Assembly (NCBI GenBank): GCA_963799775.1
Contig: CAWCYD010000003.1
Coordinates: forward strand, 128,001 to 192,000
Direction of reading: 5' to 3'
From: an uncultured archaeon
Lineage (GTDB): Archaea > Thermoproteota > Nitrososphaeria > Nitrososphaerales > Gagatemarchaeaceae
Length of the DNA: 64,000 bases
Part shown: one piece after another, positions 2,546 to 36,168 of the stretch
Position numbering within the stretch: position 1 is the first letter of the stretch
Layout of the letters: the number at the start of each line of letters is the position of its first letter
The notes under the pieces: generated by a model
Seen by the model: only the letters and a program-made list of their open reading frames with translations
Told to the model about the DNA's origin: nothing
The model's database searches: none
Position numbers and translations under genes: made by a program

Positions 2546-2572
2546 CCGCCGGTCAATCGACGGAAGTCGCGC

Positions 2573-7100: not shown

Positions 7101-7277
7101 CGCTTTCTCGCCCCTTTGCTCGCCCAGAACAACATGATCGAAGGGCAACTCCGCCACCCATAGATTGGGGCCCTGGCCGAGGTGAGCTCGAGTATGACCT
7201 TCAGGTGGAAAGTCACTTGGCGAGATGACCTTGAGCACCCAAACCTTGATTTTCCGGCGCGCGACCACCGACTGGAG

Positions 7278-8261: not shown

Positions 8262-8271
8262 GGCGATCGGC

Positions 8272-9039: not shown

Positions 9040-9145
9040 ACGCCGGCCCAGCATGCCAGTCGGACTCGAGTAGATGGTTAGGGGGATTCTAATCAGGTGG
9101 TCACGATTCCGCGCGGGGCATCAGATTTCTCAGCTCGTTTGCGCG

Positions 9146-9742: not shown

Positions 9743-9761
9743 CCTGATGGTCGCCGGCCGT

Positions 9762-10238
9762 TCACTGGCTTCGTTCGTAGATCCCGACGAGCCTGGCCTG
9801 CTCGAGGAAGTGGTCCTTGATGGAGTCCAGAAGCTGGACCCTGTTCATCCCCTGCTTGAGGGAACCTACCTTGAGGTCTAGCGCGTAGATCCAAAAGTAG
9901 TAGTGGTGGGGGCCGTGTCCGCCGGGAGGGTAGGGACCCATGTAGCCTGGCTTGCGCGTGTCGTTCAACCCCGAGACGAACGCGTTAGCATCAAGCCCCT
10001 CTGGCAGTTTCGTCGTCGTAGGAGGGATGCCGTAAACGACCCAGTGGGTGAAGCCGTGAGGCAGCGGAGCGTCCGGATCGTGGCAAATCAGTGCGAATTG
10101 CTGCGTCCCCGCAGGAGGGCCGCTCCATTCCAGGGGAGGAGACTTGTTCTCTCCGTCCCCACCGTAGCGCTTCGGGATCCGACCCAGGGGTTGGAATGCC
10201 GAGCTTGTGATCTTGAAGTTACCCAACTTTAGACTCAT
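9762..10238 (-). CDS. YbhB/YbcL (PEBP/Raf kinase inhibitor-like) protein
   Basis: SPPLEW, HDPDAP, FTHWVVY, GPYPP..HHYYF. Confidence 0.93.
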   Translation of the reverse strand: MSLKLGNFKITSSAFQPLGRIPKRYGGDGENKSPPLEWSGPPAGTQQFALICHDPDAPLPHGFTHWVVYGIPPTTTKLPEGLDANAFVSGLNDTRKPGYMGPYPPGGHGPHHYYFWIYALDLKVGSLKQGMNRVQLLDSIKDHFLEQARLVGIYERSQ

Positions 10239-10382
10239 GGTGTTTCGCCTCCCTAATTACAGAGCGGGACTTATTTCTATCTGGCGGCGCTTCATGATTC
10301 GACCGCAGTCCATGACGCCGCTCGACCGGCGTCACCGTCAAATTATTCGTGCATTCATAAACGACCACTCAATCTTATATAG

Positions 10383-11741
<1,359 letters not shown>

Positions 11742-11772
11742 GTCGGGGTGAAACCGAATCCCTGCATCTAGC

Positions 11773-12936
11773 GTGGGGATCGTCGAGACAGAGCAGTTCA
11801 CCTTCGCCGCTCCTCCTCAGGAGATGCTGCTGGAGAGCGGCGAGCGCCTCGGACCCGTCACTCTCGCCTACGAGACCTACGGACGCCTCGACTCTGACGC
11901 CTCGAACGCGATCCTAGTCGCCCACGCACTTTCCGGGGACGCTCACGCGGCGGGCGTCCACGAAGGGGACAAGACCCCAGGATGGTGGGACGCGATGATC
12001 GGGCCCGGAAGAGCGTTCGACACGGACAAGTATTTCGTCATCTCGTCCAACGTCATAGGCGGTTGCAGAGGTTCGACCGGACCTTCGTCGCCCAACCCAA
12101 AGACGGGCAAGCCATACGGGTTGGACTTTCCGATAATCACGATCAAGGACATGGTCGAGGGCCAGCGCCATCTCCTCGACCACCTCGGGATCGAGCGCCT
12201 CCTCTCGGTGGCGGGCGGCTCCATGGGCGGGATGCAGGCCCTCCAGTGGATGGTCTCCTACCCGGACAGGATCAGGTCGGCCATACCGATTTCGACCGCG
12301 ATGAAGCACACGCCTCAGCAGATCGCGCTCAACGAGGTGGGGAGGCAGGCGATAATGGCCGACCCAAACTGGAGGGATGGCAACTACTACGGCGAGACGC
12401 CCCCCGCAAAGGGCCTTGCCGTCGCGAGGATGGTGGGACACATCACCTACATGAGCGAGTCGTCGATGGGCGAGAAGTTCGGCCGAAGGCTGAAGGAGTC
12501 GAAGAGGTCGGTGAAGTTCAGCCCCGACTTCGAGGTGGAGGGATACCTCGAGAACAGGGGCGAGAACTTCGTCAAGAGGTTCGACGCGAACTCCTACCTC
12601 TACATCACGAAGGCGATGGACTACTTCGACGTCGTGGGGACGTCCAACCCCTCGCAGATCTTCAAGGGCCTGAAGGCGAAGGTGCTGGTCATCGCGTTCA
12701 AGTCCGACTGGCTGTACCCAGCCCACCAGTCCCAGGAGATAGTGAAGGCCTGCAAGTGGGCCGGTGTCGACGCCACCTACTGCGAGGTGCACTCGACCTA
12801 CGGGCATGACGCCTTTCTACTGGAGACGGAGGAGGAGACGAGGCTCATCAAGCACTTTTTGAGCTCGACCGTCAACCACCGTGACGGCGCCCACATGGCG
12901 ACGTCCAATGAGATTAGACTACAGGGTCATCGCTGA
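11773..12936 (+). CDS. metX: Homoserine O-acetyltransferase
   Basis: [16 protein letters not shown] nucleophile elbow, RFDANSY, GHDAFL. Confidence 0.95.
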
Positions 12937-13487
12937 CTGGATTAGGCCCGAGTCCAGCGTGCTGGACCTTGGGTGCGGTGACGGCGAGCTCCTCTCGATC
13001 CTCGTGAAGGAGAAGAAGGTCCGAGCGAACGGGATCGAGATCGACGAGCAGGCGATCTACAAGTGCGTGGAGAAGGGCCTGAGCGTGTTCCACGAGGACA
13101 TCGAGACCGGCCTCTCCGGCTATCCGGACGAGTCCTTCGACTACGTCATCATGAACGAGAGCCTCCAGCAAGTGAAGAAGCCCGACACCGTCTTCAAGGA
13201 AGCCCTTCGCGTCGGGAAGCGGCTCATCGTCGGCTTCCCCAACTTCAGTCACATCTCATCGAGGCTGCAGATCCTCTTCTCGGGGAAGGTGCCCTGTCAC
13301 AGCCTCGCTGCCGTATCAATGGTATGACACCCCGAACCTCCATTTCCTGAGCATCAACGACTTTCGGGACTACTGCAAGCTAAGAGGCCTCAAGATAGAG
13401 GCCAGCGCCTATCTGGGGAGGGACAAGCTGGTGGGGTTTCTTCCCAACCTGCGTGCGGAGCAGGGCCTCTTCCTGCTCTCAAAGTGA
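12908..13487 (+). CDS. metW: Methionine biosynthesis protein MetW (frameshift near 13292)
   Basis: VLDLGCGDG and GFPNF; the shifted frame continues [16 protein letters not shown]; follows metX. Confidence 0.9.
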
Positions 13488-13495
13488 TGCGCGGA

Positions 13496-13966
13496 CTACG
13501 CCACGAGCTGTTCGCGGGAAGAGATCGCCGCGTTGTGCGTGATCCAAGGGGACGGAGCCTCTCTCCCCAAAGTCTCGTGCAATAAGTAAACGGTGTCGTA
13601 GTTACTCCTGAAGATCCCCAAAGCCATCTCGTTTTCTAGCTCTTCGCCCAGCCTGCTGAAATCAAGGTCTTCGACTGATTGCGAGAACTGGAACGCCGCT
13701 CCGCCAGCGATCCTGCAGACCTGTCCAGTCGACTGCTTTCCGAATGTGAAATTGAACTCGATCTTAATCGAGTCCTTGGACCTTCGCGACTCGGTCATGT
13801 TGACGTCGAACTGGAACTCCTGGGCGCTGGAACGTGGTAGTGTCTCCGGACCGCTTGAGACCGAGACGCGGTCGATGCGTGTCACAACGTTGACTATACG
13901 GAGAGCACCGTCCTGGCGAACGACCAGATTCTGGTCGTCCGTCTTCTGGACCGTCACTGTGGACAT
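13496..13966 (-). CDS. Hypothetical protein
   Basis: Tightly coupled to the upstream wHTH gene. Confidence 0.6.
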   Translation of the reverse strand: MSTVTVQKTDDQNLVVRQDGALRIVNVVTRIDRVSVSSGPETLPRSSAQEFQFDVNMTESRRSKDSIKIEFNFTFGKQSTGQVCRIAGGAAFQFSQSVEDLDFSRLGEELENEMALGIFRSNYDTVYLLHETLGREAPSPWITHNAAISSREQLVA

Positions 13967-13967
13967 C

Positions 13968-14408
13968 TCAGCTTCGGACCTCAGCGCGCGAGCGGGATGC
14001 CCGATTCATCACATCCTGGTAATCATGAAGGACGGAGAGCCCCCTGTCGGTGATGGAGTACTCGACCTTCGATCCTTCACCTGATTGGCGGACGAAGCCT
14101 CCGGCAAGAAGATCTTCAAGATTCTTCTTCAAGACAACCCAGGACGTGTTGCTCCGATACATGATGTGGGTCCTCTTTGTGGGGCCTGAGGAGGTCACCT
14201 TCAACACGTCCATCCTCACCTCAAACGGAGACCTTCTGGAAGGTGCCTGAGCCGCCTCTTCGAAACCTTGGACTTGCGCCACTTTCTTGTCCGCCGACAC
14301 ATGCAGGGACTCTACGTGATATATACCACGAAGAAACTCAGGCCTATTTCCCGAATACATCCCAACAACATGGAATCCGGTTACATGTTTTCCCTGCGCG
14401 ATTGCCAT
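13968..14408 (-). CDS. Archaeal winged-helix transcriptional regulator
   Basis: RRSPFEVRMDVL..KRTHIMYRSNTSW..YSITDRG. Confidence 0.8.
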   Translation of the reverse strand: MAIAQGKHVTGFHVVGMYSGNRPEFLRGIYHVESLHVSADKKVAQVQGFEEAAQAPSRRSPFEVRMDVLKVTSSGPTKRTHIMYRSNTSWVVLKKNLEDLLAGGFVRQSGEGSKVEYSITDRGLSVLHDYQDVMNRASRSRAEVRS

Positions 14409-14477
14409 TTCCTTGGTTTTAATGTAAAACTTTCACGATAAAGGCGGTGGGTTTACGCTTCTTTCGAGTTACCTTTC

Positions 14478-15719
14478 TCATGTCTCCCTGGTCAGCGCCA
14501 ACCCGGAGGAGTCGTAGCTCAGGTGGTGGCCGTAGAGCCCTTTCAGCAGGCTCTCCACCCGCTTGTCCTGAGCGTTTCGCTTCACAATGAACAAGGTGGT
14601 CGCGCCCGAGCCTGCAAGGATCTCCTTCTGAGACTTTAGAAAGCCATAGGCCTTCTCGAACCCCAACGACAAGATCAGGTCCGAGACGCTGTCGAAGATC
14701 ATGAGCACCTTCCGGTCCGAGTGATCGCGGAGGGTGGTCGCCGTCATGTCCAGAAGAACAGACGAGTCGTCTTGGGGAACCTCTATCTCGCTGCCGTGGC
14801 CAGTCGGTTTTGGATACGTCGCCTGTGAGGTCATGCTTAGGATTTGTACGCCTTCAGAGGAGGAGAGAGCAGTGTAGATGGGTCCGCCCTTCCACGTGAA
14901 AGCGAAGACGAAATTCTTGGCGTCCTTGTAGGCGTCGGCGAACCGCTTGACAATCGCTTCATAGCTTATCGCCGGGTCCACATCTAGCAGGAGGCTCTTG
15001 CCCGCGAATTGAAGAGGGTCGACGTTCTTGTCCTTCTTTGAAGCGGGCCTTGAGTCTCTCGACGAGCCATCCCAGGGAAGGAGTTCCAGGGAGTAGGCCC
15101 TCGCCAACTCCGAGACCTTCGGCGAGAGTTCTCCCGTGTAGTATGCGTGGATGCTCAGCTCCGTGTCGAGCTGGGTGACGAAGAGTTTCATCACCTGCGT
15201 CTCGTCCACCCCCTTGACCAGGACATACCCGTGCTTCGATCCGTCTTCTCGCTGCGCGATGATGCCAAGAGTGTGGACCGCTCCAGATTTGCCGGCAATC
15301 TTCGCGCTGAAGATCTTTGCGCCTTCTGCGCGGAGGGAGGTCTCGAGGTTCCGGTAGCCCTCCGATTCCTGCGTCCCGAACGAAGGAAGATAAGTCAGAG
15401 CCTTGGAGATCCGCTCCTTCGTGATGTTCTCGAGATGGAGGGGCGCGGCCTCTTCTTTTAACTTCACATAGTTGTCAAGCAGTCTTGTGCCACTCCCGGT
15501 GAGAGAATATGCGACCCTCTTCCCATCGACCCTCCTCGACACTAGCTGGTTCCGGATCAAGGCCTCGAGATACATGATGAGGTCGTCCCACGTGACGTTC
15601 GCAAGTTGCATTATGCGGGTGGGCTTCTCGTTCCCCTTTGAGATGACGCTGAGGATGTCGCAGGTGATCTCCAGCTTGGAACGTCTCGCGGAAGACCTCG
15701 GGGTATCTTCTTCGAACAA
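14478..15719 (-). CDS. wHTH regulator fused to a restriction-endonuclease-like domain and a DUF835/KaiC-like domain
   Basis: N-terminal RRSKLEITCDIL..PTRIMQLANVTW; middle IAGKSGAVHTLGI; C-terminal MIFDSVSDLILSLGFEKAY. Confidence 0.65.
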   Translation of the reverse strand: MFEEDTPRSSARRSKLEITCDILSVISKGNEKPTRIMQLANVTWDDLIMYLEALIRNQLVSRRVDGKRVAYSLTGSGTRLLDNYVKLKEEAAPLHLENITKERISKALTYLPSFGTQESEGYRNLETSLRAEGAKIFSAKIAGKSGAVHTLGIIAQREDGSKHGYVLVKGVDETQVMKLFVTQLDTELSIHAYYTGELSPKVSELARAYSLELLPWDGSSRDSRPASKKDKNVDPLQFAGKSLLLDVDPAISYEAIVKRFADAYKDAKNFVFAFTWKGGPIYTALSSSEGVQILSMTSQATYPKPTGHGSEIEVPQDDSSVLLDMTATTLRDHSDRKVLMIFDSVSDLILSLGFEKAYGFLKSQKEILAGSGATTLFIVKRNAQDKRVESLLKGLYGHHLSYDSSGLALTRET

Positions 15720-15845
15720 ATTCTTCGTTTTTCCTCTCCCAGTCCCTTGCCGATTCTCGGCGTGATGATGATATGTAAGTTTTCGCCGTCACATTTGGTG
15801 AATTATCTTAACAGGAAGAGTCCGGTCGTGACGATGGAGCCGGGA

Positions 15846-16124
15846 TCAGCTTGGGCCTGGTGCGGCGGCACCAGCGTCTGCCGTCTGCTTCTCTAGCCTT
15901 GTGTTGGCTCTCCAGGTGGCTGCTATGAATCCCAAGACAATCAGTGTCACGATGAGCGCGAGGACGCCCCTGGTGGTATTGGCGCCGGGAGAAAGGATCG
16001 CTCCGTCAAGGACCAGCACTAGGGCGATAGAGGCGAGCATGTTCCGCCTCCAGGTCTTGGGAGGTCGCCTCTGCTTCTTCGACATCACGCCAAAGTCGCA
16101 TGCCGCGGATATAAGACGTTGCAC
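15846..16124 (-). CDS. Small two-TM membrane protein
   Basis: Two hydrophobic segments. Confidence 0.55.
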   Translation of the reverse strand: MQRLISAACDFGVMSKKQRRPPKTWRRNMLASIALVLVLDGAILSPGANTTRGVLALIVTLIVLGFIAATWRANTRLEKQTADAGAAAPGPS

Positions 16125-16166
16125 ACTGCGTGCAGGATTCTCAGATGTGACCGGGCCTTGGGCAGC

Positions 16167-16565
16167 TTACGGGCCTTGCCAGAGCATCAGGAGGTTTCCT
16201 TCCGTGTCTTTGAAGTAAGCAGTGGCGCCGACCTCCTCGTAGGCGATGGGGCCTTCGATCTTCTTCGTCATCTCTGTCTTTTCGGCCTTGCTGAACTTCA
16301 CGCCCTTCCCTTTCAGGTCAGCCACAACCGCCTTGATGCCGTCGACGATGAAGACGTTGTAGGCCAGTTCCAGCTTCTCCTTCTCAGACGGCGTTACCAA
16401 CCAAAAGTCGCATCCGCTCAACCTCACGGATGCCCAGAAATCCTTCATCTCCCCTTCCATGCGCTGCAAGAGCTTCCCCCCGAGCGTCGTCGTGTAGAAC
16501 TTGACAGCCCGGTCCATGTTCCGAACCGGGATCAGCGTCGCGTGCTTGCTGATCTTTGATGACAA
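16167..16565 (-). CDS. VOC/glyoxalase family protein
   Basis: IPVRNMDRAVKFY...YFKDTEGNLL. Confidence 0.9.
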   Translation of the reverse strand: MSSKISKHATLIPVRNMDRAVKFYTTTLGGKLLQRMEGEMKDFWASVRLSGCDFWLVTPSEKEKLELAYNVFIVDGIKAVVADLKGKGVKFSKAEKTEMTKKIEGPIAYEEVGATAYFKDTEGNLLMLWQGP

Positions 16566-16635
16566 ACCTGCATGTGGTCCTCCTCCGAGTTATTTAATCT
16601 GCTTAGACGGATGTCGCATTCCGAACAGGCGGCTT

Positions 16636-18074
16636 TTACGACCTGAAGGCGAACGGGTTCACAGGGAAGTAAGCGAAGAAGAAGCCGACTGCCGCGACCA
16701 ACCAGATCAGGATCAGCAGCCGCTCTATCCCGACCCTGCCCCTTGCAAGGAAAGTCACCACCAACGGGATCCCGAGCGCAAGCCCGACGTCTGTGTTGAT
16801 GAAGTAGAAGGCGTACTCGACCCTCTGGCTGACCAGTGAGATGTAGAAGAGCGGCAGATACGTCCCCGCGACGAGGGACGCGACCAGCGCGTCGATCTGC
16901 GATGCCTTGCGTCTGACGAGCCTCCACCCGACGAGGGGGACCACCAACCAGATCGAGTACCAGACGACCAGGTTCCCTATCCCTTGCCAGTCTATAGGAT
17001 GGTAGAGTGTCACTATCGTCGTCGGCCCGCAAGTGGACGGCGAAGGACAAGTCGTCTTGGTGACGGAGATGGTCACGCTGCTAATGAAATACGGGAGAGG
17101 AGCGACGCCAAAGGGAAGGCCCAGTTCCAAGGGTAGCAGTTCCAGGCGTTGGTAGAGCCGCAGCCTTTGAGGGAGTTCTGATAGGTGAAGTAGAACTCGA
17201 AGTTCTGGAGCGGATTTGTGATCAGTCCCGACTGCTCAGTGACCGTCTTCGTGGTCGTCGACGTCGTGTTCGCCACGGGGTTGACGATCACGGTGGGCTC
17301 GATGACCACGGTCGTCTTCGTGTGAGGTTGGTAGGCTAGGTCGTACCCCCAGAGCGGCACGCCCACGACGAGGATTACGATTATCATGAACGCGGCCGTC
17401 TTTTTGAGGCCCAACGGAGAGGCCCGTGTCCTGATCTTGATCTTGCCTGCATTGGCCCAGAGGTGATAGACGAGAAGCGCCAGCAAGAAGAAAACCCCGC
17501 TCTCCTTGCTGAGAACGCAGAGGCCGAACGCGACGGCTGAGAGGTAGTAGCTCTTCTTGAAGTACGCGACGAAGCCGGCCAGCGCGAAGAGCACGGGCGG
17601 GGCGTCCAGAAGGAGGAGGGAGCTGTGGATGAAGAACAGGTTCTCGAAGGCCAGCATCGATGCCGCGAGGAGGGCCTTCTCCTTGGAGAAGAACTGCCTC
17701 GCCAGCTCGTACATGAGCCAGACCGAAAGACTGCCGATGACCGCGTAGAAAATGCGCCACCCGAAGAAGTTGTTTCCGAAGATGGTCATCCCAAGCGCTC
17801 CCCAGATCTTGCCGAAGAACGGGTGCTCCGGGTTGGAGGCAACTCCGTGTAGGAGATCCAGAGAAGCCGGGACATAGTATGACTCGTCGAAGACGTATGC
17901 GGTGGTTCCGCTAGTGTTCGTGGGGAACGAGAGCGCGAAGAGGTGTAACGCGAATATGATCAAGACCAGATGGCCTATGTTTATCCCGGCAACGAACCTC
18001 TCCAGACGGCCTGTCAGCGATGTCCTAGGCTCGTAGACGACCGGGGGGCTGGAGCTCTCCTGAGGTGTCGTCAA
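16636..18074 (-). CDS. PMT/ArnT-type (GT-C) glycosyltransferase, frameshift near 17125; start uncertain
   Basis: VFDESYYV, EHPFFGK, FGWRI and SKESG; the C-terminal TM part is in ORF 16636-17130. Confidence 0.82.
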
Positions 18075-18133
18075 GCCGGTCGCCGGTTTGACCATCGATG
18101 ATATAACCTCAAACATCCAAGTCCTGACCGCTC

Positions 18134-18799
18134 GTGAGACATGAGCTACTCGTAATGTCCGCCCCGGCTGACAGGCCATCGACCGGCCTGCTCCATTGGG
18201 TGGTCCTATGCTCATATCTCGCAGCGTTCATCGCCCTCGCGGCAGCCCTGGTCCTGACGCTCCAAGGGAACCTTTGGGTCTACCAACTAGGCGGAGTCTC
18301 CTCGGTCTCGGTCGGGTGCGTCGCGGTCCTCTACGTCCTAGCGCAATACAGGCTCAGGAACACCGGATACACGGTGCTGCAGTCGGTCGTCCTAGCTGTC
18401 CTCTTCGCGAACGCCTTCCTCCAGACCTACGAGTTGATTTACAACCTATTCTTCGGGATAGCATTCACGGGGACCGAGGCGAGGATGGTCCTCCTGTGGC
18501 TCATCATGATCTCTCCGGTCGCGCTTGTCCTAGACGACCTTCGATTCACAAAGACAAGCGCGCTGGTCCTCATCTTGCTGGTGGCTACCTGGATAGTCTG
18601 GATCCTTTACGGCTACCCGCAATACTACTACTCTGGGTACACCTACGCCCGAATACTGCAGACCTCTGACCCGTTCCATCTCAGCCTGTGGCTGAACTTC
18701 GGCTCCAAGGCGCTGCTAGCCGTCCTCTTCGTCACTTTGTTGGAGCCTGTCAAGGCTCTCAAAGCAGGGTTGGCCCGCCTCCGGGCTCCGAGGGGCTAG
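18134..18799 (+). CDS. Polytopic membrane protein of unknown function
   Basis: About six TM segments. Confidence 0.65.
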   Translation: MRHELLVMSAPADRPSTGLLHWVVLCSYLAAFIALAAALVLTLQGNLWVYQLGGVSSVSVGCVAVLYVLAQYRLRNTGYTVLQSVVLAVLFANAFLQTYELIYNLFFGIAFTGTEARMVLLWLIMISPVALVLDDLRFTKTSALVLILLVATWIVWILYGYPQYYYSGYTYARILQTSDPFHLSLWLNFGSKALLAVLFVTLLEPVKALKAGLARLRAPRG

Positions 18800-19017
18800 G
18801 CCGGTGCTCGCGACATGGTCAAGGGAATTATGCAATTTGTCTACAATTGATGGCATTTCGAGTAATCTGCCTCAGGGGCGAAGGCGAGGCAGACCCAGTG
18901 ATGAGACTAACCGTTGACGCGTCAGACATCAAGAAAAGGATGAACCGGCCTTCGAATGTCAAACCGGAGTTAACGTTCCTAAGACTTAAATCGACTGACC
19001 GGGCTGCTCTTCGAAGT

Positions 19018-20019
19018 TTGAGAAGGGCCGTCTCCCTCGCCTCGATTTTGTCACTTGTCGCGGCTCTCTCAATTTCTGGCGCGACCACCGTCAACGCACA
19101 GACCACCGGCGGCTGGACTGCGACCGGGTGGGTGGCATCCGGGACGATCTTCGACCTGACGGGAAACGCCAACCTTGCCCAGGGGAGCGCCCTGGTGACC
19201 GGGCACTCCTACAACATGACGCTCCAGATCAACGTGCCGAACACTTCCACGAGCACGCCACAATTCCAGGTGAGCTTGAACAACGCCTTCCTGCCCTCTA
19301 CGGCAGGGCAGTCGGTCTACTGGGTCGTCCACACGCCCAACTACGCGGGATACAACCGAACTGGGTTCTCCGGAGGAAGCAAGACGGTCACCTTCAACTA
19401 CAACCAGGGCACGGTCAAGCTGTCCGCCTACTTCCAGATTCCAGGCAACTTCACGATACCCACGGCAAAATACTCCACCCCGGCAGGGAACGGGACGATC
19501 ACCCTCCACATCCCTCTGAATAACGTCATCCTGGCATCCGTGGTCCCACTGGGGTCGACCGGGACCGGCTCGTTCGCGGCGTCCATAAGCGACCAGACGA
19601 TCCAGCTCTTCGCGACCCAATACAACCAGACCTCCACCCTCATCCCGTCCGGGAAGATCTCCTCGAGCTACTCGACGATCGTGAACTCGATCCTTGCCGA
19701 GGCTCAGGCGCTCAACGGGCTTGGGCTGCCTGACCAAGGGACAGCACTGCTGAAGGCGGTTACACAGTCTGCGTTCCCCACGCCTCCGAGCACAGGGCTG
19801 CAGACTGACTTGCTGGTGGGTCTCGCGATACTGGTGATCCTGGTGGTCCTGCTGGCCGTCCTCATGGTGAGGAGCAGGGGCAAGAGCGGATACTCTGTCG
19901 GGATAATCAACGACGTCCAGAAGGACCTCGCGGTCCTGGAGGTCACGGCGGCGAAGTACGACAGGGCCATGGCCGACAAGCTAAAGTCGCTGCGCGACAA
20001 ATTGAGTGAAACAGGTTGA
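19018..20019 (+). CDS. Secreted, C-terminally membrane-anchored Thr/Ser-rich surface protein
   Basis: Signal peptide MRRAVSLASILSLVAALSISGATTVNA, many N-x-S/T sequons, C-terminal TM and short cytoplasmic helix; CTTAAA about 30 bp upstream. Confidence 0.75.
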   Translation: MRRAVSLASILSLVAALSISGATTVNAQTTGGWTATGWVASGTIFDLTGNANLAQGSALVTGHSYNMTLQINVPNTSTSTPQFQVSLNNAFLPSTAGQSVYWVVHTPNYAGYNRTGFSGGSKTVTFNYNQGTVKLSAYFQIPGNFTIPTAKYSTPAGNGTITLHIPLNNVILASVVPLGSTGTGSFAASISDQTIQLFATQYNQTSTLIPSGKISSSYSTIVNSILAEAQALNGLGLPDQGTALLKAVTQSAFPTPPSTGLQTDLLVGLAILVILVVLLAVLMVRSRGKSGYSVGIINDVQKDLAVLEVTAAKYDRAMADKLKSLRDKLSETG

Positions 20020-22701
20020 GCAAGACAAACGAGAACAAGCAGGCTTCGTTCGCAAGCATCCACGTGGTGGGTCTGGGGGGAACCGGGACCAACGTCATCC
20101 AGGCTTTCATCGAGAGCGACAGGGCCTTCAATCTCCTGACCTCTGAAGATTTCAACATCGCCTGCCTCTCAGTCGACGTCGCCGACGCCGACATCGCGAA
20201 CCTGGTCAACTCCTACAAGAACACCCAGGCCAAGCTAGAGGCGAAGGGTGTCTCGGTAGACAGACTCTGGGTGAGGGGCCTGAACATGAAGTTCAACACC
20301 CCGGAGGCTCTCTTCGAGTTCATGGGCAAGTACAACACCTATCTCATGAAGGAGGGCATAGTCGCGACAAACTACAAGCCGTGGGTCGCCTCGTCCATGA
20401 CGATCCCGCCTCTCGCCGGCGGAGTAGGGAGGATGAGGGCTCTCAGCAAGGCCGTCTACGCCCTGAACTACTACCACTACAGCGAGCTCAACAGCGCGAT
20501 CTCGGTCTTCAAGGACAGGGTGCTCACGTCGAAGTTCCAGCCTATCGTCGTCCTCGTCTTCGGTCTCGGCGGCGGGACAGGCAGCGGCATGGTCTTCGAT
20601 TTTGCAAGGCACCTGCGAGCCAAGCTGGGCTCCTCGGTCCCGATAATCGGCCTCGCGATACTCCCGAGCGCGGCCGACGACCTCCTCGCGAGGGGGCCCG
20701 CGCCCTACAACGCGCTCATGGAGGCAGAGCTCCTCTTCAACAGGAAGCTCAACGAGCAGGTCGCGAAGAAGTACGGGGCCGCGTACGCCAATCCTTTCAA
20801 CTCCATGTTCTTCGTGCCTCTCGACCCGGTCTACAACAACAGGAACAACCTGGTCACCGCGAAGAAAGAGCTTGACGAGTCGATCATCGACATCCTCAGC
20901 ATGTTCATGAGGTTCGACCTCGCCGACCTCATGAGCAGGGTCGGCACAAACAACGACTTTGGGGCCAACTGGGCGCACACGATGGCGTACCTGCGCATCA
21001 GATATCCCGTCCAGGACTACATCGACTACATGCACGAGTACCTGAAGCTCCTGGAGACTCTGGGCACCTTCATGGAGGCGAAGAGGGAGGCGCTCACCAC
21101 GATCAACGAGGCGATGAAGAACAGGTTCGTCGCTCTGAAGAACCTATACAAGCGGAACCTGATCCAGTCCAACAACTACCGACCCGACTCGTTCGACTCT
21201 GAGGTCGAAGAGGTGATACGCAGGGCAGGGAAGTTCGAGGCAGAGTTCAGGAAGCAAGTCCGAGGACTCGAGGACTTCGCGCTCCACTACAACCAGAGGT
21301 GGAGCAAGGCTCCTCCAAGCGATGGCCTTCGGCCCGGAGACGGTGGAGTTCAGCGTCGTGCAGAGCCTCACGCACTTCCACCAGCAGATCTCGAACCTCG
21401 GGGCGAACTACGAGCAGTTCCTCAAGGACATCCCTCTCTACACAACCGAGCTTGAGAACAGCATTACGGCGAGCAAGTTCCTCACGTCTAGCCAGATCAG
21501 GCAGGTCAGGAGCTACCTGAGCTTTGTCAACCTTATCGCCACGTCTCTCGAGACGCTCAACCTCTACATCCGAGCAAAGGGCCTCGCAGACGAGGTCGCG
21601 GTCCTCTACGCGAAGGACGAGAGCAAGGAAGGGCGGATGGCTGCTTCAAAGGGCGAGACGGATCTGCTGCCTCTCTACAAGGCGGCCGGCTACATCCTCA
21701 ACCGTCCAGAGACCGAGATCAAGGTCTCCGACCAATACATCCCGGGCATCAGGATCGTCAAGAAGGGGTTGGACGACACCTTCAGGGAAGCCAGCGCCTC
21801 CCTAGAGTCTACCGAGAGGCTGCTAGCCCAGAAGGAGCAGGACATCTCGAGGCTCAACAAGGAGATGGACAAGATAAAGCTCGACGTCAGCGGGAAGAAG
21901 AAGCTATTGAAGCGCACGCAGGATTCGCTGCAGAACGAGGTGGAAGCGGTCCGGGCGGGGATAGAGGGTCAGAGATCAGACAGGGACAAGATGCGGGCAG
22001 ACCTGGACAAGCTGACCGAGTTGGAGAAGGCGCTCGAGATCACCTCCCCCTACAGGAAGATACTGGCGACCGTCGTCAACAAGACCTCCGAGCTCAACAG
22101 CCTGATGAGCGGCATCACGAACACAGGAAGCTACTACGAGAGGGTCGTGGAGCTCAGCGAGGTAGAGCAGGTCAAGATAATGGAGAGGATTCTCCGCGAG
22201 GACGAGGAGAGCCTCAAGGGAGACTCCATCCTCAAGGAGATAGTGGACAGAGAGAGGTTCCGGAGCATAGTGAAGAGCTACATCCGCATCTTCAGCGTCC
22301 CCAACTACCCCGGCCTCGCTGACACCTACAGGTCAGACCTGATCTGGGCCACCGTAGGCATCCCACCCGGACTATGGGACCAAGAGCTCCAGGGCGCGCT
22401 CACGAGCACGCTCAACGTCTACTCCAGCGTCGAGGCGAGCAAGAGCATCTCCCTTAGGCAGATTCCCCAGATGGACGCCTGGACGATCACATTCCTGGTA
22501 ATAATGGCAAAGGCCAGGATCGACCAGATAGAGAAGTTCCCATCCATGAAGAACGACATGGAAGGCGTGCAAAAGTCGGAGAGGCTTCTGTTCAGGAGCT
22601 TCCTGCTCGAGCAAGGGTTGGGGAGCCTCGACGAACTGATAGCGAAGTTCGAAGAGAGAAGCGCGGCACAGTCAGCGAGAGCTAGAGAAAGGGAGGCCTG
22701 A
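20016..22701 (+). CDS. FtsZ/tubulin-superfamily GTPase (Tubulin_2/FtsZl1-like) with long coiled-coil insertion; frameshift near 21312
   Basis: VGLGGTG (T1), GGVGRMR (T3), GLGGGTGSG (T4 signature) and FDLADL (T7); long helical region with heptad-rich stretches. Confidence 0.85.
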
Positions 22702-24962
22702 TGGACCAGATTGAGAGCAGGTCACGCGCACGGGTCACTGCCTACACCTCAGCCCTGATTATCGCCATCGCGTCAGCGGTATACCTGGTAGTCGTCCCGT
22801 TCCTTCCGGCAGCGCCCGTAGTCCCCGTGCTCGTAGGGGCCGGCCTTGGTGCTCTCTCCCTGAAGAACAGAGGGATAGCGATAGCGACGCTCTATCTGCT
22901 GTTCTACTTCTCTGTGCTCTGGCAGCTGATCGGCTTCGGCTTCTTCCAGCTCCTTTCTGACGGGATCGGCGTCGCGGTGCTCCTCGCGATGGCGGCGCCC
23001 CTTTTGCCTTTCATGGCCAAACGGGTGGAGCTCGGGTCGATGGCTCTCGCGGTCCTCGCGGTGGCGCTCATGCTCACTCCGGCGTACTTCGTCTCGGTCC
23101 CGCTCTTGGCGGCGGCCGCCTTGACCTTCGGCGGGTTCGCGAGCCTCGAGGCGCTCGCGGCCACGTTCATCCTGTTCCTGACCCCGTTCCTGCTGCTGGA
23201 GAACGCCTTGTACTTCACGACGAGCAGCGGCGCGACCACGCCGATCGTCTTCAGCCAGTTCTCCCTCCTTGAGCAGAACTTCAGGCCGTCGCTCCCTGGA
23301 TTCAACGTCCTTCTTACCGGGCTCCCGGCCAACTACCTCTCGCATTCCGCGCTCCCTGTCTCGATATGGCTCTCGCAGAACGCAGGGGTGCTCTTGATCC
23401 CGATCGCGATACTCGGGGTGGTCCTCGTCGCCTCGTCGTCTATCGGGGGAGTCGCGCGCACCCTCGTCGAGAGGTTCCAGAGGTCTAGGGAGATGACCGG
23501 AAAGCTGAAGCTCGTCTTGGCTCCCTTGGTGGTCGCCGTCGTCGTCCCGACCGTCTTCATCGCTCTCCTGCTGGTGCTCTCCCGTCCTGGCAGCGGCGGC
23601 TTCCAGACTGCCCTCAGCAACGACCCTTCGCACCTCCAGGTCGTCTACATGTTGGGTTCCTCGTTCTTGTTGACGACATCCTTCATCGGCCGCGAATCGC
23701 TAATACTCAGGCTCGAGAGCGTCCAGGTGGGCACCGAGGGGCTCGAGACGCTTCTCGGCCTCTGCCAATCAAAGCTGGAAGGCGTCCAGGACCTGATAGG
23801 GATCCTCTCGAGGCGCGTGCCATCTATGAGCCTCAGCGGTGAGAGGCAGTCGATGTCTGAATATGCGGCCTACATGGGCGACGTCCGCAGGCAGATAGTT
23901 GGGGCGGGCGGGGGGACGATAGCGCAGTTCCAGACCCAGCTCGAGGCCACGGTGCTAAAGCCGCTCACCGAGGAGCCAGACCATCTTCGGAGGAGGGTCG
24001 CGAGCGAGATCAGGGGACTTGTCTCCGCCACCGCCACCGCGAACAACCATCTGGAACAAGCCGAAGTCTCACTGAGATATCCGGACATCCAGGACATCTC
24101 AGACGACATGCAGCTCGATGAGCTGATTGGCGCGTATGAAGCGGCCACCTCGAGAATAAGGAAGGTCACAGGAGAGCTCTCCGACCTCTACGTGAGAGAG
24201 TCGGCAGCCCTCGACGTCATGATGGGCCAGGAAGAGGTCCACCTTCCGGTCAGCGCCTCGGCGCTCCTCGAGTCGAACGAGTACGTGGGCGCGATGAGAC
24301 TGGTGGCGGAAGAGTACTGGCTCAATTTCTATCTGCGCTGGGCGGAGCAACTGGATCAGAAGAAGTCGCTCCTCCTGGAGAACACGAGAGCCCTCGAACC
24401 CGCGGTCGGGGAGGAAGACAAGATCCGGCTCCATGGGATAGAGAAGGTCGTGGAGGCGGCAAAGCCTGCGACCTCGAGCGCGACCCTGGAGGGTCTGCGC
24501 GAGCTTCGCGCCATGATAGAGACGGTCGTCACGCAGATGGCCTCAGGTTCGGACAGGGTAGGACAGATGCTCGAGTCCCTCGAGCTCAAGTCGATCACCG
24601 GTGTGAGGTTCGAGACGATGAACAGGCTGAGCGAGGTCGTCGAGCTGAAGAAACGGCTCGAGAGGGTTGGCGTGACCTTCGACAGCCTCACGCGCTTCCT
24701 CGGTGACGCGGTGAGCGTCCTCAAGAGCCAGAGCGAGGCGTGGAAGACTGACCGCGAGAACCTGATCGTCCTCGCACAATACCCGCTGGCGAGGAAGATA
24801 ATCGAGAAGATGCTGAAGGGGCAGGGCAGCCTTGCCCTCTCGAAGCTGCCATACCAGAAGAGGGCGGCGGCCCTCTATGCCCAGCTCTACGCGTCGGCTA
24901 GCGCAGGGATAGAATACGACGTCGAGGGCGAGAGCCTCAAGGTGGCTGGAGAACATGGCTAA
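22701..24962 (+). CDS. Polytopic membrane protein (about 9 TM) with large cytoplasmic helical C-terminus
   Basis: Hydrophobic N-terminal ~330 aa and amphipathic helical remainder; start overlaps the upstream stop. Confidence 0.8.
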   Translation: MDQIESRSRARVTAYTSALIIAIASAVYLVVVPFLPAAPVVPVLVGAGLGALSLKNRGIAIATLYLLFYFSVLWQLIGFGFFQLLSDGIGVAVLLAMAAPLLPFMAKRVELGSMALAVLAVALMLTPAYFVSVPLLAAAALTFGGFASLEALAATFILFLTPFLLLENALYFTTSSGATTPIVFSQFSLLEQNFRPSLPGFNVLLTGLPANYLSHSALPVSIWLSQNAGVLLIPIAILGVVLVASSSIGGVARTLVERFQRSREMTGKLKLVLAPLVVAVVVPTVFIALLLVLSRPGSGGFQTALSNDPSHLQVVYMLGSSFLLTTSFIGRESLILRLESVQVGTEGLETLLGLCQSKLEGVQDLIGILSRRVPSMSLSGERQSMSEYAAYMGDVRRQIVGAGGGTIAQFQTQLEATVLKPLTEEPDHLRRRVASEIRGLVSATATANNHLEQAEVSLRYPDIQDISDDMQLDELIGAYEAATSRIRKVTGELSDLYVRESAALDVMMGQEEVHLPVSASALLESNEYVGAMRLVAEEYWLNFYLRWAEQLDQKKSLLLENTRALEPAVGEEDKIRLHGIEKVVEAAKPATSSATLEGLRELRAMIETVVTQMASGSDRVGQMLESLELKSITGVRFETMNRLSEVVELKKRLERVGVTFDSLTRFLGDAVSVLKSQSEAWKTDRENLIVLAQYPLARKIIEKMLKGQGSLALSKLPYQKRAAALYAQLYASASAGIEYDVEGESLKVAGEHG

Positions 24963-26000
24963 GTGCCCCAACGGCCACGAGCAGCGTCTGGGGCTCAGAT
25001 GCGACTCCTGCGGGGCGGAGATCTCGTACAGGCAGTCCGTCTCCGAGCTTCTCGAGCTCCCAAAGGTCAACCCTGATTATGGCAAGATCTCGGTGCTCAT
25101 GGTCGGATGCCCGAAGCTTGCTGTGAAGGCCGACTACGTCGGTGAGATTTCCGTCGCGCAGGCCGACGCCCAGACCTCGACCTCTTTCCAGGTCGCAGGC
25201 ATCCGCGGGGGGAGCTGGCTAGACTTTCAGACAAAGTATGCGGACCAACTCAGAAGATGGATGAATCTCGTAGGGGTCGGAAGGTCGAGAGACAGAATCC
25301 TCGTCGTCGACACCACAGACCCAATCGCGGTCCTCGCCCTCTCTGCTCTCCCGCCCCTCGATCACTCGGCGCTTGTGGCCATCGTTGCGGACCAGGACTC
25401 CACGCCGGTCGAGCAGAACACGAGCTATGTCGCCCTCTCGCTTGCCTTGAAGAAGGGCATACCCGTGATCGCTCTCTCCGAGACGTTCGAGAGGGAGATG
25501 CTATTCTTCACCGAAGATCGAGGCTTCGCAACCAGCGGTGACGCGCTCTCCAGGCTCCTCGAACCCCTCATCTCGGCGGCGGACGACCTGATGGACATCC
25601 TTCAGAGGGACATGAAGCTCGGCATAAGCATGCACTCCCTCTCTGCGATACTTTCCGGGTCGAAAGCTGTCTACGGGATCGCCACGAACGCCTTCCTCGC
25701 TCAAAGTTACGGGATATCGATCGCTGGAGAGAAGACCGACTACCAGACGGTCCATGCCCTAGTCTTCTCGAGGGGCGCCGACAGGAGCGAGTTCGAGAAG
25801 GGCTTCGTGGCACCTTCAGGAACAGGAAGTTCAAGGGCGCTCTAAGCGCGGAGTTCCGCTTCCGAGAGACGCAGTCGCAGCTCTACGACATGATGACGAT
25901 CTATGGCATGGCGAACAAGTCGGCGCTGCAGGGTATCTCGAGCGGATACCAAGCGATCGTCAAGAGCCTGCCTGAGCTAAAGGCCGAAGGGGTGTCCTGA
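24955..26000 (+). CDS. Zn-ribbon plus probable degenerate tubulin-fold protein; frameshift near 25812
   Basis: CPNGH..CDSC N-terminus; the shifted frame continues FRNRKFKG...to TGA at 26000; weak tubulin-like segments but no GGGTGSG. Confidence 0.6.
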
Positions 26001-26005
26001 CTGCA

Positions 26006-26796
26006 ATGGCCGATACCACGGACCAGGGCCGCACACCGGCTAGCAAGTCGCGCGTATACAAGCTCGTCTCGGCATCTTACCGCGACCAGGCATACGACGA
26101 TGGCATCCTACTCCTTGATCCAGCCAAGAGAGAGATAGAGCTCCGGCAACTGGCGGGCAGGAGGAAGAAGAGGAGACTGTGGTCGCGAGGTTCCGGGCTG
26201 ATCCTGACGCCGAGCTAGAGGCTGACGGGGCGGCGCTCAAGATCTCAGACCTCTCGATCACGCTTGAATCGCCTGCCGTGGCAATGGAGATAGTGGAGCT
26301 CCTGGGACGTCCAGAGACGAATAGCGAGGGACTGGGACAGCTCGCGCGAGCCGAGTCGGCGGTAACCGGCTTTCTCAAAACCCGTGAGGAGGCGATGAGA
26401 TTCTTCGCGTGGGCGAAGGTCTCTCCCCGAGAAGCGCTCCTCAGCAAGGAGTCAGAGCTCCCGTTCGACACTACGAAAGACCCTCTAGATGTGGTATACT
26501 CCAGCTACTCCACGCGCCTGAGCGAGTCTCTCGACAGGATGAACCTCTCTCTAGGAGAGGCGGAAACGCTCCTGGGCCCGAAAGCGGTAGAGCGTCTCTA
26601 CGCGCTCGCCTACACGATAGGCCAGGTCCAGAACTCCTTGTTCGAGGGCCAGCCCGACCTCGCCAAAGAGGTCGGGTGCCTTGCAGAACTCGGCGTCGTA
26701 GCGACCGCCCAAGACCTCCGGGATGAGAAACTCGCCGAGGAGCTCATGCTGAGAGCCCACAAGGGGCTTGAAGCGATGATCCCCAGCGCTTCTTGA
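26006..26796 (+). CDS. Hypothetical protein (beta-rich N-terminus, helical C-terminus); frameshift near 26170
   Basis: ORFs 26006-26218 and 26179-26796 join; starts 5 bp after the previous gene. Confidence 0.6.
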
Positions 26797-26814: not shown

Positions 26815-28070
26815 CTATCCAGCGGACGTCGTCGCCGGCGGTGGGGGCCTCGCGGTGGGCACGACGTTGATCGTCATCGCGGTCGTCCCCCTCATGATGC
26901 CCACGGCCAAGGTGTGGCCGACTGCGGCGTGCTCCTCAAGGTATGAGGCGAGCGCGTCGTGGTTGAGTATCCGGGTCCCGTTTATCGAGACTATCACGTC
27001 TCCCCCGACCAGATACGGCCCTCCTTCAACGGTGGCCTGCTTCGTCCCGGCGTGAATGCCCGCGGCGGCCGCATGGACTCCAGCGACGACGTCCTCGATG
27101 AGCACGCCGTAGGTCACGTTGTTGCCGTTCGCCTGAGCGAGCTGGTAGAACATGTCAGCCGTGCCTATGCCCAGGTACGGGTGCTCGCTGTAGGTCCCCG
27201 TTCGCTATCAGAGAGGAGAGCTCCCTGGTCACCGTGTCGGAGGGGATCGCGAACCCGACGCCGACCGAGCCGTTTATCGTCGCTGTAGTCAGACCGATCA
27301 CCTGCCCGCCGGAATTGAACAAAGGCCCGCCAGAGTTGCCCGGGTTTATCGGTGCGCTGAACTGGATGATGTCCGCTATGGAGAAATTACCTGCGGTGAC
27401 CTCCGTGATTGTCCTTCCGAGTTGGCTCACCACTCCGACTGTGAGAGAGCCCGTAAGGCCGAACGGATTGCCTATCGCCGCTACCGGGTCTCCGACTTGG
27501 ACCGCCGAAGACGGCGAGAGCGTCAACAGGTGGAACTCTGATGCGGGCGCGCTCGGAACCTTGACCACCGCCAGGTCGCTGTATGGGTCAGTCCCCACGA
27601 CGCTCGCCGGGTAGGAGTCCCCGTTCCAGAAGGTGACCGTCATGTTCTGTGCGCCGTCGACCACGTGGTAGTTTGTGACGACGTAGTTCGCTCCGCCATA
27701 GGTCATGGCGAAGCCCGACCCGAGTGACCTCCTCTTGCACCGTCTGAGAGCCGAAGAAGACGTTCACGTTGGCGGTGATGTACCCGTCTACGGTCACTAT
27801 GCTCTCGTTGGCGCTCGTGTAGATCTGTTCGGCGTTGATGCTCACGTTAGATGTGCTCCCTCCAACCGACGTCGAGCCACCGCTGCCTCCGCCGAGCGTC
27901 ATGGTCGCGGTGGAGGTGGTGGTCGAGGTGACCGTTTGCGCTGATGCGGCAGGCGTCCTTCCCGGAACGAGATAATACGTTGCGCCCGCGCCTAGCGCGG
28001 CAGCGAGCAGAATGAGGATTGCGATTCCTGCCACCTTGCCGGCACCTATCCCTCTTGACGGGTAGTCCAT
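26815..28070 (-). CDS. htrA: HtrA/DegP-like serine protease with PDZ domain and N-terminal TM; frameshifts near 27200 and 27722
   Basis: TNYHVV, SDLAVV and INPGNSGGPL catalytic triad; PDZ GDVIVSING. Confidence 0.9.
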
Positions 28071-34054: not shown

Positions 34055-36161
34055 ATGGGTCGGTTAGACGAGTTAGTTGGCGAGGTAAAAGAGTCTAGCC
34101 TTCGCGAACAACTTCAGTCTGCACTAGCCGAGATGAAGCGGAAGCAAAACTTCGGATTGGTATTCGAGGAGCACATCCCAGAGACGACCGCATTACTGGG
34201 ATTGCCCATCCAGACGGGCTCTGTGGTTCAGCGACGAGACCAGAAAGGAAACAGTCTTTTTAGAGTGACAGCAACGTCAGCGAGCGGAGAATCGGCCAAG
34301 ATTGCCCCAACACAGGGAGGAGAAAGTGAAACAATACTCACGAATGAGCCTTCTGGTCGTAAAGAGATTTGGTGAACCAATCTATCCTGCCCTGACGCCA
34401 GTTGGAACCGTGAAGAGAGGCGGTAACAAACCGTTCCACGCTGTCATAAATGGGGAGAATTATCATGCCATGCAGCTTCTGAACTACATCGTAGCGGGAA
34501 GCGTTGATTGCATCTACATCGACCCGCCCTACAACACCGGCGCTAGGGACTGGAAGTACAACAACAATTTCGTCGACCACAACGACCGCTGGCGCCACTC
34601 AAAGTGGCTCTCGATGATGGAGAAGAGGCTGCTGCTTGCGAAGCGTCTTCTCAAGCAGGACGGAGTGCTCATCGTCACAGTTGACGAGAATGAGGTTCAC
34701 CATCTCGGCATGCTCTTGGAGAGGCTCTTCCCGCAGGCGAGATCCCAGATGGTCACAATCTGCATCCAGCCAAGCGGCGCCAGCGGAGAGGGACTATCTC
34801 GCGTCGAAGAGTACGCAACCTTCTGCTTCTTCGGCGAAGCCCAGCCGGTTCCGACTCCCGACGATATGCTCATCGCCGAGAGCAATCCCCAAGGAGACGG
34901 ACAGCTCAGCCTAGATGAGGGCCTGGTCTGGGAGTCGCTACTCAGACGGGGCAATGCGTGGTATCGGGCGCGCCGGAAGAACCTCTGTTATCCGGTCCTG
35001 CTCTCCGAGGACGCCACGCGGATTTTCCGCGCCGGCCCTCCCTTCAAGGGCGAGGACGAGGAGGCCCGGCCATCCGAAATCGATGGGCATCCCGTCGCTT
35101 GGCCTGTGCGGAAGGACGGTAAGCTCGGGATTTGGCGAGTGGACGGCGCCCGCCTCAACTACCTAGCCGGGCTCGGGTACGCCCATGTAGCGGGCCGCGA
35201 CGACGTCCGAAAGACGTGGGCACTCCGATACCTGATGTCCGGCACCGTGTCGGCAGTCGAAGACGGCTCCATCCAAATCATCGGCCATGGAGAGAGAGGC
35301 GAAGTGATCGGCAAGGTGATTGGTGGGCGCACCAGGATTGCCAAGACGATGTGGTACCGCGGGCGGCACAACGCGGGCGGGGCAGGCGGAACCCAGATCC
35401 TCAACGCCTTCCTCGGCAAACGCAACGTTTTCCCCTTCCCGAAGTCCGTCTATGCGGTCCGAGATTGTCTCCAGGTCGCCATCGGCGACAGGTCCGATGC
35501 CATAATCCTGGATTTCTTTGCTGGGTCTGGAACGACTCTGCATGCGACGGCGTTGCTAAATGCTTCGGATAACGGACGGCGCCAGTGCATTATAGTCACG
35601 AACAATGAAGTTGAAGCTGAAGTGGCTACGAAACTTCAGAAGAGCGGAAAATATCGAGGCGATCCCGATTATGAGAAATATGGCGTCTTCGAGGTCGCGA
35701 CGCGTCCAAGAATAGAGGCGGCTATCACCGGGCACCGGCCCGACGGTTCTGCTGTGCCGGGCGAGCATATTGACGGCCGGCCTTACGCGGAAGGGTTTCC
35801 GGAAAACGTGGAGTTCTTCCGAGTGGATTATCTCGATCCTAACGACGTTGATCTAGGAAAGCAATTCGAAGCAATTCTACCCTCTCTATGGCTTGCCGCA
35901 GGAGGCAAAGGTGACAGGTCCGCCCCGGAGAAAGGGATGGATTTCCTTCTGCCCTCAAAATCCCCTTACGGGATCCTCCTAAAGGAATCTAGGTTCGAAA
36001 AGTTCAGGAAAGCCGTAAGAACGCGAAAAGACGTAACGCACGTCTGGCTGGTAACCGATTCCGAGGAAGCCTACGCGGAGATGAGGTCAGAGCTACCAAG
36101 CAGGATCAGCACATCTATGCTGTACCGAGATTACCTGCGTAACTTTCAGATAAGCCGGTAA
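34055..36161 (+). CDS. Type III-like R-M adenine methyltransferase (Mod, beta class); frameshift near 34348
   Basis: FGLVFEEH, YIDPPYNTG, FPFPKS and ILDFFAGSGTT. Confidence 0.9.
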
Positions 36162-36168
36162 TCGAGTC

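Follow-up and report, generated by a model that had tools for sequence, protein, structure and literature searches.

The closest described relatives of the system reported here are the FtsZl1 (Tubulin_2) proteins. In the available portions of Makarova and Koonin 2010 (PMC2875224), FtsZl1 is described as having an FtsZ-like domain at the N-terminus followed by an extended coiled coil and a C-terminal domain without likeness to FtsZ or tubulin. Likewise, the accessible parts of two family surveys (PMC2875224, PMC9871819) present FtsZl1 as lacking a recognisable C-terminal domain and assign it no function. The partners listed there, as far as these texts are available, are vWA, kinase, P-loop GTPase and OmpA proteins together with families A1-A2 and B1-B9. 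Here, we describe a five-gene cluster, g1 to g5, that surrounds an FtsZl1-type GTPase with other partners. It lies in a 64,000-nucleotide stretch (hereafter the window) of the genome of an uncultured archaeon of the Gagatemarchaeaceae, order Nitrososphaerales (assembly GCA_963799775.1, contig CAWCYD010000003.1, positions 128,001 to 192,000). A search of the open-access literature revealed no description of a g1-g5 operon or of a zinc-ribbon tubulin partner.

The five genes are close-packed on the forward strand between 19018 and 26796 (Table 1). An earlier, sequence-only reading of this DNA had proposed this gene set with its coordinates, which are borne out in the window, and the junctions were found as it had claimed. 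The g1 and g2 genes have TTGA in common (a 4-nt overlap at 20016), g2 and g3 meet in TGATG (a 1-nt overlap at 22701), and g3 and g4 share ATGGCTAA (an 8-nt overlap at 24955). Five nucleotides, 26001-26005, separate g4 from the g5 ATG at 26006. A conserved promoter-like block is present before g1 only. This TAAnGCTTAAAT block, which contains the element CTTAAAT, is invariant or nearly so in 7 of 7 aligned upstream regions from the genus and family, and its flanks are variable. It resembles an archaeal TATA-like promoter and would give a near-leaderless transcript; its position supports 19018 as the start of g1. The tight coupling of the five genes and the presence of a promoter-like block before g1 only both count for a single operon, which is the best explanation of the region.

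The sequence-only reading had suggested a survey of gene neighbourhoods across TACK archaea. One genome per species was scanned for 185,579 species, which yielded 66 g2 loci, labelled here by their record titles: 28 from Nitrososphaerota/Thaumarchaeota, 25 from Chloroflexota (mostly Dehalococcoidia), 7 from Bathyarchaeia, 2 from other Thermoproteota and 4 from unlabelled archaea. With two additional loci, L014 and L020, this gave a set of 68, in which the DNA around the g2 relatives was searched with iterated hidden Markov models (HMMs) over open reading frames (ORFs). The g1, g2, g3 and g4 families occur together in 55 of the 68 loci, accompanied by g5 in 14 of these and, in 32, by gX, a protein of ~325 aa that is encoded between g3 and g4 in other lineages. 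Most of the 13 incomplete loci end at a contig end. Only 2 of the 68 loci lack g1 directly upstream of g2, and the g3 family is present in 60. Throughout the genus and the family, the genes retain the g1-g5 order and their overlapping junctions. The operon is thus conserved as a unit far beyond the genus. Clustering of 791 flanking ORFs revealed no further gene common across lineages, only synteny at the level of individual lineages. A FastTree phylogeny of 59 g2 sequences splits into two types: type A, whose 19 rows include that of the window, is associated with g5, and type B, of 40 rows, with gX. The g2 family is rare: only 122 of 1.84 billion representatives match it at E <= 0.001, and ~15 of these have full length.

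The g2 protein is a member of the FtsZ/tubulin superfamily, of the FtsZl1/Tubulin_2 type. Fold predictions and searches were done on the orthologues from the nearest relative, G018 (locus L014), in which all five genes are intact, and not on the split genes of the window. The N-terminal piece of g2 matches Pfam Tubulin_2 (PF13809) with an E-value of 1.8e-15 and 57.5 bits (cut-off 27) over profile positions 2-213 of 356, and Pfam Tubulin with 7.5e-8; its relatives, where complete, are single open frames of 887-922 aa. In the alignment of 59 sequences, the T1 glycines (G19, G21 and G24), the T3-like AGGVGR loop (G135, G136, G138 and R139), the T4 loop GLGGGTGSG (G183, G185, G186, G187, G189 and G191) and the T7-like FDLAD loop (F300, D301 and D304) are invariant at the positions given. 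The g2 profile aligns T1 and T4 onto CetZ1 at the sequence level, and its only match under E 0.001 among Protein Data Bank (PDB) sequences is CetZ1 4b46, at the T4 loop (41 columns, E 7e-4). Against the NCBIfam ftsZ equivalog TIGR00065, g2 reaches 23.6 bits over residues 5-34 only, far below the cut-off of 295.2; we thus rejected g2 as a canonical cell-division FtsZ.

The AlphaFold (AF2) model of g2 has a mean predicted local distance difference test score (pLDDT) of 86.9 and a predicted template modelling score (pTM) of 0.77. It comprises a Rossmann-type domain that extends to about residue 330, a stalk of ten helices between residues 332 and 700, the longest of 53-56 residues, and an alpha/beta domain at ~705-860. 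When structures were compared with VIA-align, whole CetZ, FtsZ and tubulin chains fitted residues 12-855 of the model, using both halves; the best match, CetZ 3zid_A, gave a Z-score of 24.4 and a root-mean-square deviation of 3.5 with 319 of 360 residues aligned. Because whole chains align over this range, the model supports the presence in g2 of a tubulin C-terminal domain, parted from strand S7 by the helical stalk. The sequence-only reading had described a C-terminal domain split by helices in a protein of ~890 aa, and the model and the aligned range agree with it. A 1069-aa relative, P0043, is collinear with g2 over 826 columns (hhalign probability 100%). Four other proteins, P0027, P0029, P0032 and P0034, are ~520-560 aa long and carry the g2 GTPase domain without the coiled-coil stalk; P0027 aligns with the g2 profile over 276 columns, in the N domain only (hhalign E 1.9e-36). 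They may be an uninterrupted form of the g2 branch, and the C-terminal end of P0027 may resemble that of g2.

The GGGTGSG loop, the long coiled coil, the C-terminal domain and the membrane-protein-rich operon are all features that g2 has in common with FtsZl1, and its three-part architecture is of the ordinary FtsZl1 kind, not peculiar to g2. Two differences are apparent. In the predicted structure a normal tubulin C-terminal domain follows the coiled coil, contrary to the 2010 description. The operon is also without vWA, Ser/Thr kinase, P-loop GTPase or OmpA genes, and the partners are instead g1, g3, g4 and either g5 or gX. No Pfam or NCBIfam match to vWA, kinase, P-loop GTPase or OmpA was obtained for the five genes or for 33 ORFs between 5.6 and 40.4 kb, nor for their relatives (50 of g1, 52 of g4, 50 of g3, 12 of g5 and 30 of gX). 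As the sequence-only reading had stated, there is no vWA, GTPase or kinase partner in the operon; none was found within ~13 kb of it either. In structure, g2 comes closest to CetZ (3zid, 4b45 and 4b46; Z 23-24), which also ranks with the closest matches of g4 (Z 22-23). CetZ differs in being contiguous, with ~350-390 aa, no stalk insert and no such operon, and its sequence likeness to g2 is local.

The g4 protein is the second tubulin-fold component. A C-x3-H ... C-x2-C zinc ribbon is near invariant at the N-terminus in an alignment of 52 relatives, 34 of which match Pfam Tubulin (PF00091) and 14 Tubulin_2, while the window's orthologue matches no Pfam family on its own. In its AF2 model (pLDDT 91), residues 41-346 form a tubulin fold complete with both domains. 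This model was matched to CetZ2 by Foldseek (E 3.2e-12) and, by VIA, to OdinTubulin (Z 23.2, with 300 residues aligned across 43-346 of the model) and to BtubA, gamma-tubulin and CetZ at Z 22-23. Alignment, Pfam matches of relatives, fold model and structural matches thus all agree with the description of g4 in the sequence-only reading as Zn-ribbon/tubulin-like. The T4 motif GGGTGSG is intact in 19 of the 52 members, partial in 14 and lost in 19. Those with an intact T4 comprise 17 from Chloroflexota, mostly Dehalococcoidia, and 2 from archaea. All type-A g4 proteins, including the clade of the window, have an 8-residue deletion at T4, and their glycine-rich T1 is gone. Since the tubulin fold is complete but the T1 and T4 loops are gone, g4 in this clade is, as judged from alignment and predicted fold, a pseudo-tubulin without GTP-binding loops.

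Two tubulin-fold proteins encoded together, with unequal nucleotide chemistry, are reminiscent of alpha/beta-tubulin, BtubA/B and Asgard AtubA/B, and chains of such heterodimeric tubulins rank high among the structures that g4 matches. However, g2 and g4 are not close paralogues, the stalk is on g2 and the zinc ribbon on g4, and their pairing is a prediction. Moreover, heterodimeric tubulins hold a non-exchangeable GTP, whereas g4 in the clade of the window has lost the GTP loops altogether. A P-loop protein described in the FtsZl1 literature, although not of the tubulin fold, is a notable parallel to g4.

Two conserved partners are putative membrane proteins. The features of g1 suggest a type-I membrane surface protein, with a signal peptide of the form RR-hydrophobic-VNA/Q and a tail of the form FPxPP, transmembrane (TM) segment, R/K and helix that is conserved across 50 aligned sequences. 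The sequence-only reading had called g1 a glycosylation-site-rich protein with a cytoplasmic tail. The tail was found; the six N-x-S/T sequons are all in the ectodomain, but their number is no more than composition gives (4.3 +/- 1.8 in shuffled sequences, P 0.23). The g3 protein appears to combine a polytopic membrane part with a large soluble domain. Its earlier description as a ~9-TM protein is compatible with the 8-10 segments of our hydropathy scan, the sole basis for this count. Neither family corresponds to a Pfam family, with scattered single matches among the 50 g1 members and the 50 g3 relatives, and the neighbours of g3 in the Atlas are unnamed archaeal clusters. No Pfam family was found for the 12 relatives of g5, which had no Atlas match above 0.83, or for the 30 relatives of gX, one of which touches GRAM at an E-value (0.0067) too weak to use. 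The g5 and gX proteins are not homologous by hhalign (probability 2%), though they have the same operon role. FtsZ is tethered at the membrane by the dedicated partners FtsA, ZipA and SepF. The operon resembles this arrangement as an idea, with a tubulin-fold GTPase and dedicated membrane partner proteins, but g1 and g3 match no FtsA, ZipA or SepF family in Pfam.

Building on the observed gene order, conservation, predicted folds and motifs, we propose a membrane-anchored, GTP-driven assembly around the two tubulin-superfamily proteins, docked to g1 and g3 through the stalk and with g4 as a non-catalytic partner; GTP hydrolysis, a polymer or heterodimer, contacts between the parts and an effect on the membrane or cell shape are proposed along with it. 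We give this model about an even chance. The g2 protein would bind GTP via its intact T1, T3 and T4 loops. In the tubulin superfamily, a T7-like acidic loop serves hydrolysis in trans across the longitudinal contact. The FDLAD loop of g2 would meet a second tubulin-fold subunit, either g2 or g4, head-to-tail, and hydrolysis would require assembly, as it does for FtsZ, CetZ and tubulin. The stalk of ~370 residues would project from the filament or dimer and serve as a docking arm for the cytoplasmic helix of g1 and the soluble domain of g3. These two proteins would in turn anchor the assembly to the membrane and link it with the cell exterior. Finally, g4, GTP-blind in this clade, could be a cap, nucleator or spacer for g2, and g5 (gX elsewhere) an adaptor. 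The sequence-only reading had proposed a trans-envelope machine; the conserved operon does join an outside domain (g1) and the polytopic g3 to a tubulin-superfamily GTPase, while polymer formation and membrane remodelling keep the status of predictions.

Several observations weigh against such an assembly. The sequence-only reading had also listed intact T1, T3, T4 and T7 motifs, and all four loops are indeed invariant, but the T3 and T7 labels are ones we presume from position in the model and from the FtsZ consensus, and residues 130-144, the T3-like loop, have a pLDDT under 50. Sequence likeness between g4 and g2 is weak (hhalign 85%, 62 columns around T4). The spread of the system is patchy: of 41 genomes searched, the window's own included, 16 have a g2 relative. 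Within the genus these are 9 of the 22 other genomes, and elsewhere in the order 5 of 16 other families. The system is therefore dispensable. Five further loci of the same genome score above the Pfam Tubulin PF00091 cut-off, in open frames of 352-487 aa, and these additional FtsZ/CetZ-like paralogues are an unusually large set for a Nitrososphaerales genome; g2 is thus not the sole tubulin-superfamily protein available for division. Pfam Snf7 had no match in the genome, and the Sulfolobus control was also under the cut-off, so that this is no evidence of Cdv absence. The formation of usual filaments by FtsZl1 is doubted in the available text of PMC2875224. Furthermore, FtsZl1/Tubulin_2 appears as uncharacterised in the accessible portions of that paper, PMC9871819 (Santana-Molina et al. 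2023), PMC9723716 (Culexarchaeia), PMC5898192 and PMC7300363. A complex prediction for g2 residues 1-340 with g4 and GTP scored 0.00, was run without controls and says nothing either way.

In a second reading, g2 is a GTPase switch and not a polymer. A g2 monomer, or a closed g2-g4 heterodimer, would toggle the stalk and thereby regulate g3. The latter would be a transporter, an insertase or a signalling protein, and g1 would be the sensor or cargo. The loss of the g4 GTP loops in some lineages and their retention in others is as in enzyme/pseudo-enzyme pairs, and so large a stalk in the C-terminal domain of g2 could hinder lateral packing of filaments. A non-filament FtsZl1 was also considered by Makarova and Koonin, in the portion of PMC2875224 available. 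On the other hand, the invariant T7-like acidic loop of g2 speaks for hydrolysis in trans, although a heterodimer would satisfy this loop too. We regard the switch as rather unlikely.

The phylogeny and distribution bear on a third reading, a mobile accessory module for defence or TubZ-like partition in which g4 would contact nucleic acid through its zinc ribbon. Presence within the genus is patchy. In the midpoint-rooted FastTree, the g2 sequences of Chloroflexota, 23 in all, fall into a single clade (support 95) that sits within the archaeal rows, which suggests cross-domain transfer; because of this nesting, the tree suggests one transfer from archaea to Chloroflexota, with the root not established. 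Yet PADLOC and PHROGs gave no match above noise for the five G018 operon proteins, or for gX and g4 of the Dehalococcoidia locus L046. No integrase, replication or DNA-binding partner recurs among the 791 flanking ORFs, the operon is bordered in the window by housekeeping genes that keep synteny with relatives, and two of the conserved parts are membrane proteins. For TubZ-type partition in particular, no match to PHROGs rose above noise and the flanks showed no DNA-binding gene that recurs; repeats were not searched for. An accessory module of this kind seems highly improbable, and the membrane-anchored assembly remains the reading we prefer.

Relative to G018, the g2, g4 and g5 genes of the window each contain one frame change, near 21310, 25806 and 26167, respectively. 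In g2 there is one extra base, at a site that is not a homopolymer run; in g4 one G is missing from a G run; and in g5 one A is missing after 26167. These changes are very likely assembly indel errors and not decay, because a 355-nt contig from the public run X1, otherwise identical to the window, has the missing A, and because unrelated neighbours are also split. Between 14.4 and 32 kb, 14 genes can be compared with G018, and a frame change breaks 5 of them, including the flanking genes for a PMT-like glycosyltransferase (near 17106) and an HtrA-like protease (near 27190), which points to a high rate of assembly indel errors. In addition, the genome is in 3 contigs yet reaches a marker-gene completeness of 81.7%, and the two halves of g2 are both open and ~92% identical to the relative. 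The opposite view, that the operon is decaying here, with three genuine frame changes and genes that are recent pseudogenes, draws on the fact that 3 of the 5 genes are out of frame, that the change in g2 is away from any homopolymer run and that the sites in g2 and g4 are outside the cover of the X1 contigs, which is partial (22 of 30 bins); X1 may share its source sample with the assembly. Given the restored A and the split neighbours, we consider decay improbable.

Table 1. Coordinates of the operon, its surroundings and related loci. Positions refer to the window unless another sequence is named.
Feature	Coordinates	Strand	Description	Basis
Promoter-like element CTTAAAT	18985-18991	+	within the conserved block, ~30 nt upstream of the g1 start	alignment of upstream regions
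g1	19018-20019	+	TTG start, 333 aa; signal peptide, ~230-aa ectodomain, TM helix 258-290, ~43-aa cytoplasmic helix	ORF; hydropathy
g2	20016-22701	+	~892 aa, two frames in window; FtsZl1/Tubulin_2-type GTPase, tubulin core broken by ~370-aa helical stalk	ORF; Pfam, AF2 model, VIA
g3	22701-24962	+	753 aa, intact frame; 8-10 hydrophobic segments in first ~300 residues, then ~450-aa hydrophilic domain	ORF; hydropathy scan
g4	24955-26000	+	two frames in window; CHCC zinc ribbon (residues 1-40) and complete tubulin/FtsZ fold without T1/T4 GTP loops	ORF; alignment, AF2 model
g5	26006-26796	+	~260 aa, two frames in window; conserved NPREAL motif in C-terminal half	ORF; alignment of 12
221-aa protein	18134-18799	+	just upstream of g1; ~6 hydrophobic segments, no Pfam family
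PMT-like glycosyltransferase	16639-18215	-	split relative to G018
HtrA-like protease	26815-28070	-	trypsin and PDZ; split relative to G018
Type III restriction-modification pair	34302-38631	+	N6_N4_Mtase methylase, then ResIII/DEAD helicase
L092, contig C3	201098-201562		Pfam Tubulin match	PF00091
L093, contig C3	558997-559473		Pfam Tubulin match	PF00091
L094, contig C3	995813-996292		Pfam Tubulin match	PF00091
L095, contig C3	1227794-1228273		Pfam Tubulin match	PF00091
L096, contig C3	1909509-1909988		Pfam Tubulin match	PF00091
L041, extra half-cluster	366-4522	-	g5-g4-g3
L041, full operon	6981-14447	+	g4 and g5 in one frame
L020, secreted protein	15070-19437	-	~1455 aa, convergent after g4

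Between 5.6 and 40.4 kb, the window also contains an ABC transporter, methionine-biosynthesis genes, two winged helix-turn-helix (wHTH) regulators, a glyoxalase, the PMT-like glycosyltransferase and, upstream of g1, the 221-aa membrane protein (each with synteny in the genus only), the convergent HtrA-like protease, DUF1634/TauE and the type III restriction-modification pair. G+C is 0.52-0.54 at 36-42 kb, around this pair, and ~0.59 nearby. The 221-aa protein is syntenic in four genus-level loci and not in the family-level and more distant loci compared (L018-L025). Because its synteny stops at genus level, it is probably not part of the system. One of the five additional Tubulin loci lies ~9 kb beyond the end of the window.

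Variant arrangements were seen in other genomes. Locus L041, from a Thaumarchaeota metagenome-assembled genome, has an inverted extra half-cluster beside the full operon, and in the full copy a single frame of 519 aa spans g4 and g5. Genome G025 has two g2 genes (loci L022/L072 and L025/L082), one in a g3-g4-g1-g2 cluster and the other beside ribosomal-protein genes, with no partner gene within the 13 kb examined. In 12 loci of one type-B archaeal lineage, L020 among them, g4 is followed immediately by a convergent gene for a secreted protein of ~1455 aa, which may be a surface partner specific to that lineage or simply reflect synteny.

The FtsZl1/Tubulin_2 proteins are the most divergent branch of the tubulin superfamily. 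What is known is the FtsZl1 family, itself uncharacterised, and what is new is the partner set of g1, g3, g4 and g5 or gX. As a compact conserved operon, this set amounts to a parts list of four or five proteins, with a stalked tubulin core, a pseudo-tubulin partner and two membrane anchors. Such a defined list, with clear predictions, makes the biochemistry of the FtsZl1 branch directly testable. It also adds an example of a tubulin and pseudo-tubulin pair from beyond the eukaryote-like tubulins. In its widest and most tentative form, which we hold possible but less probable than not by a clear distance, our proposal is of a heterotypic prokaryotic tubulin machine, in which an FtsZl1 GTPase is co-assembled with the pseudo-tubulin g4, wired through its stalk to the g1/g3 receptor pair and moved as a unit from archaea to Dehalococcoidia. 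If true, a GTP-driven cytoskeleton would be coupled from the outside of the cell to its inside. The Dehalococcoidia envelope is archaeon-like, without a wall and with an S-layer, and this envelope type could, if the proposal holds, explain why the transfer took. The apparent transfer of a whole module from archaea to Dehalococcoidia bears on how envelope type constrains the spread of cytoskeletal machines.

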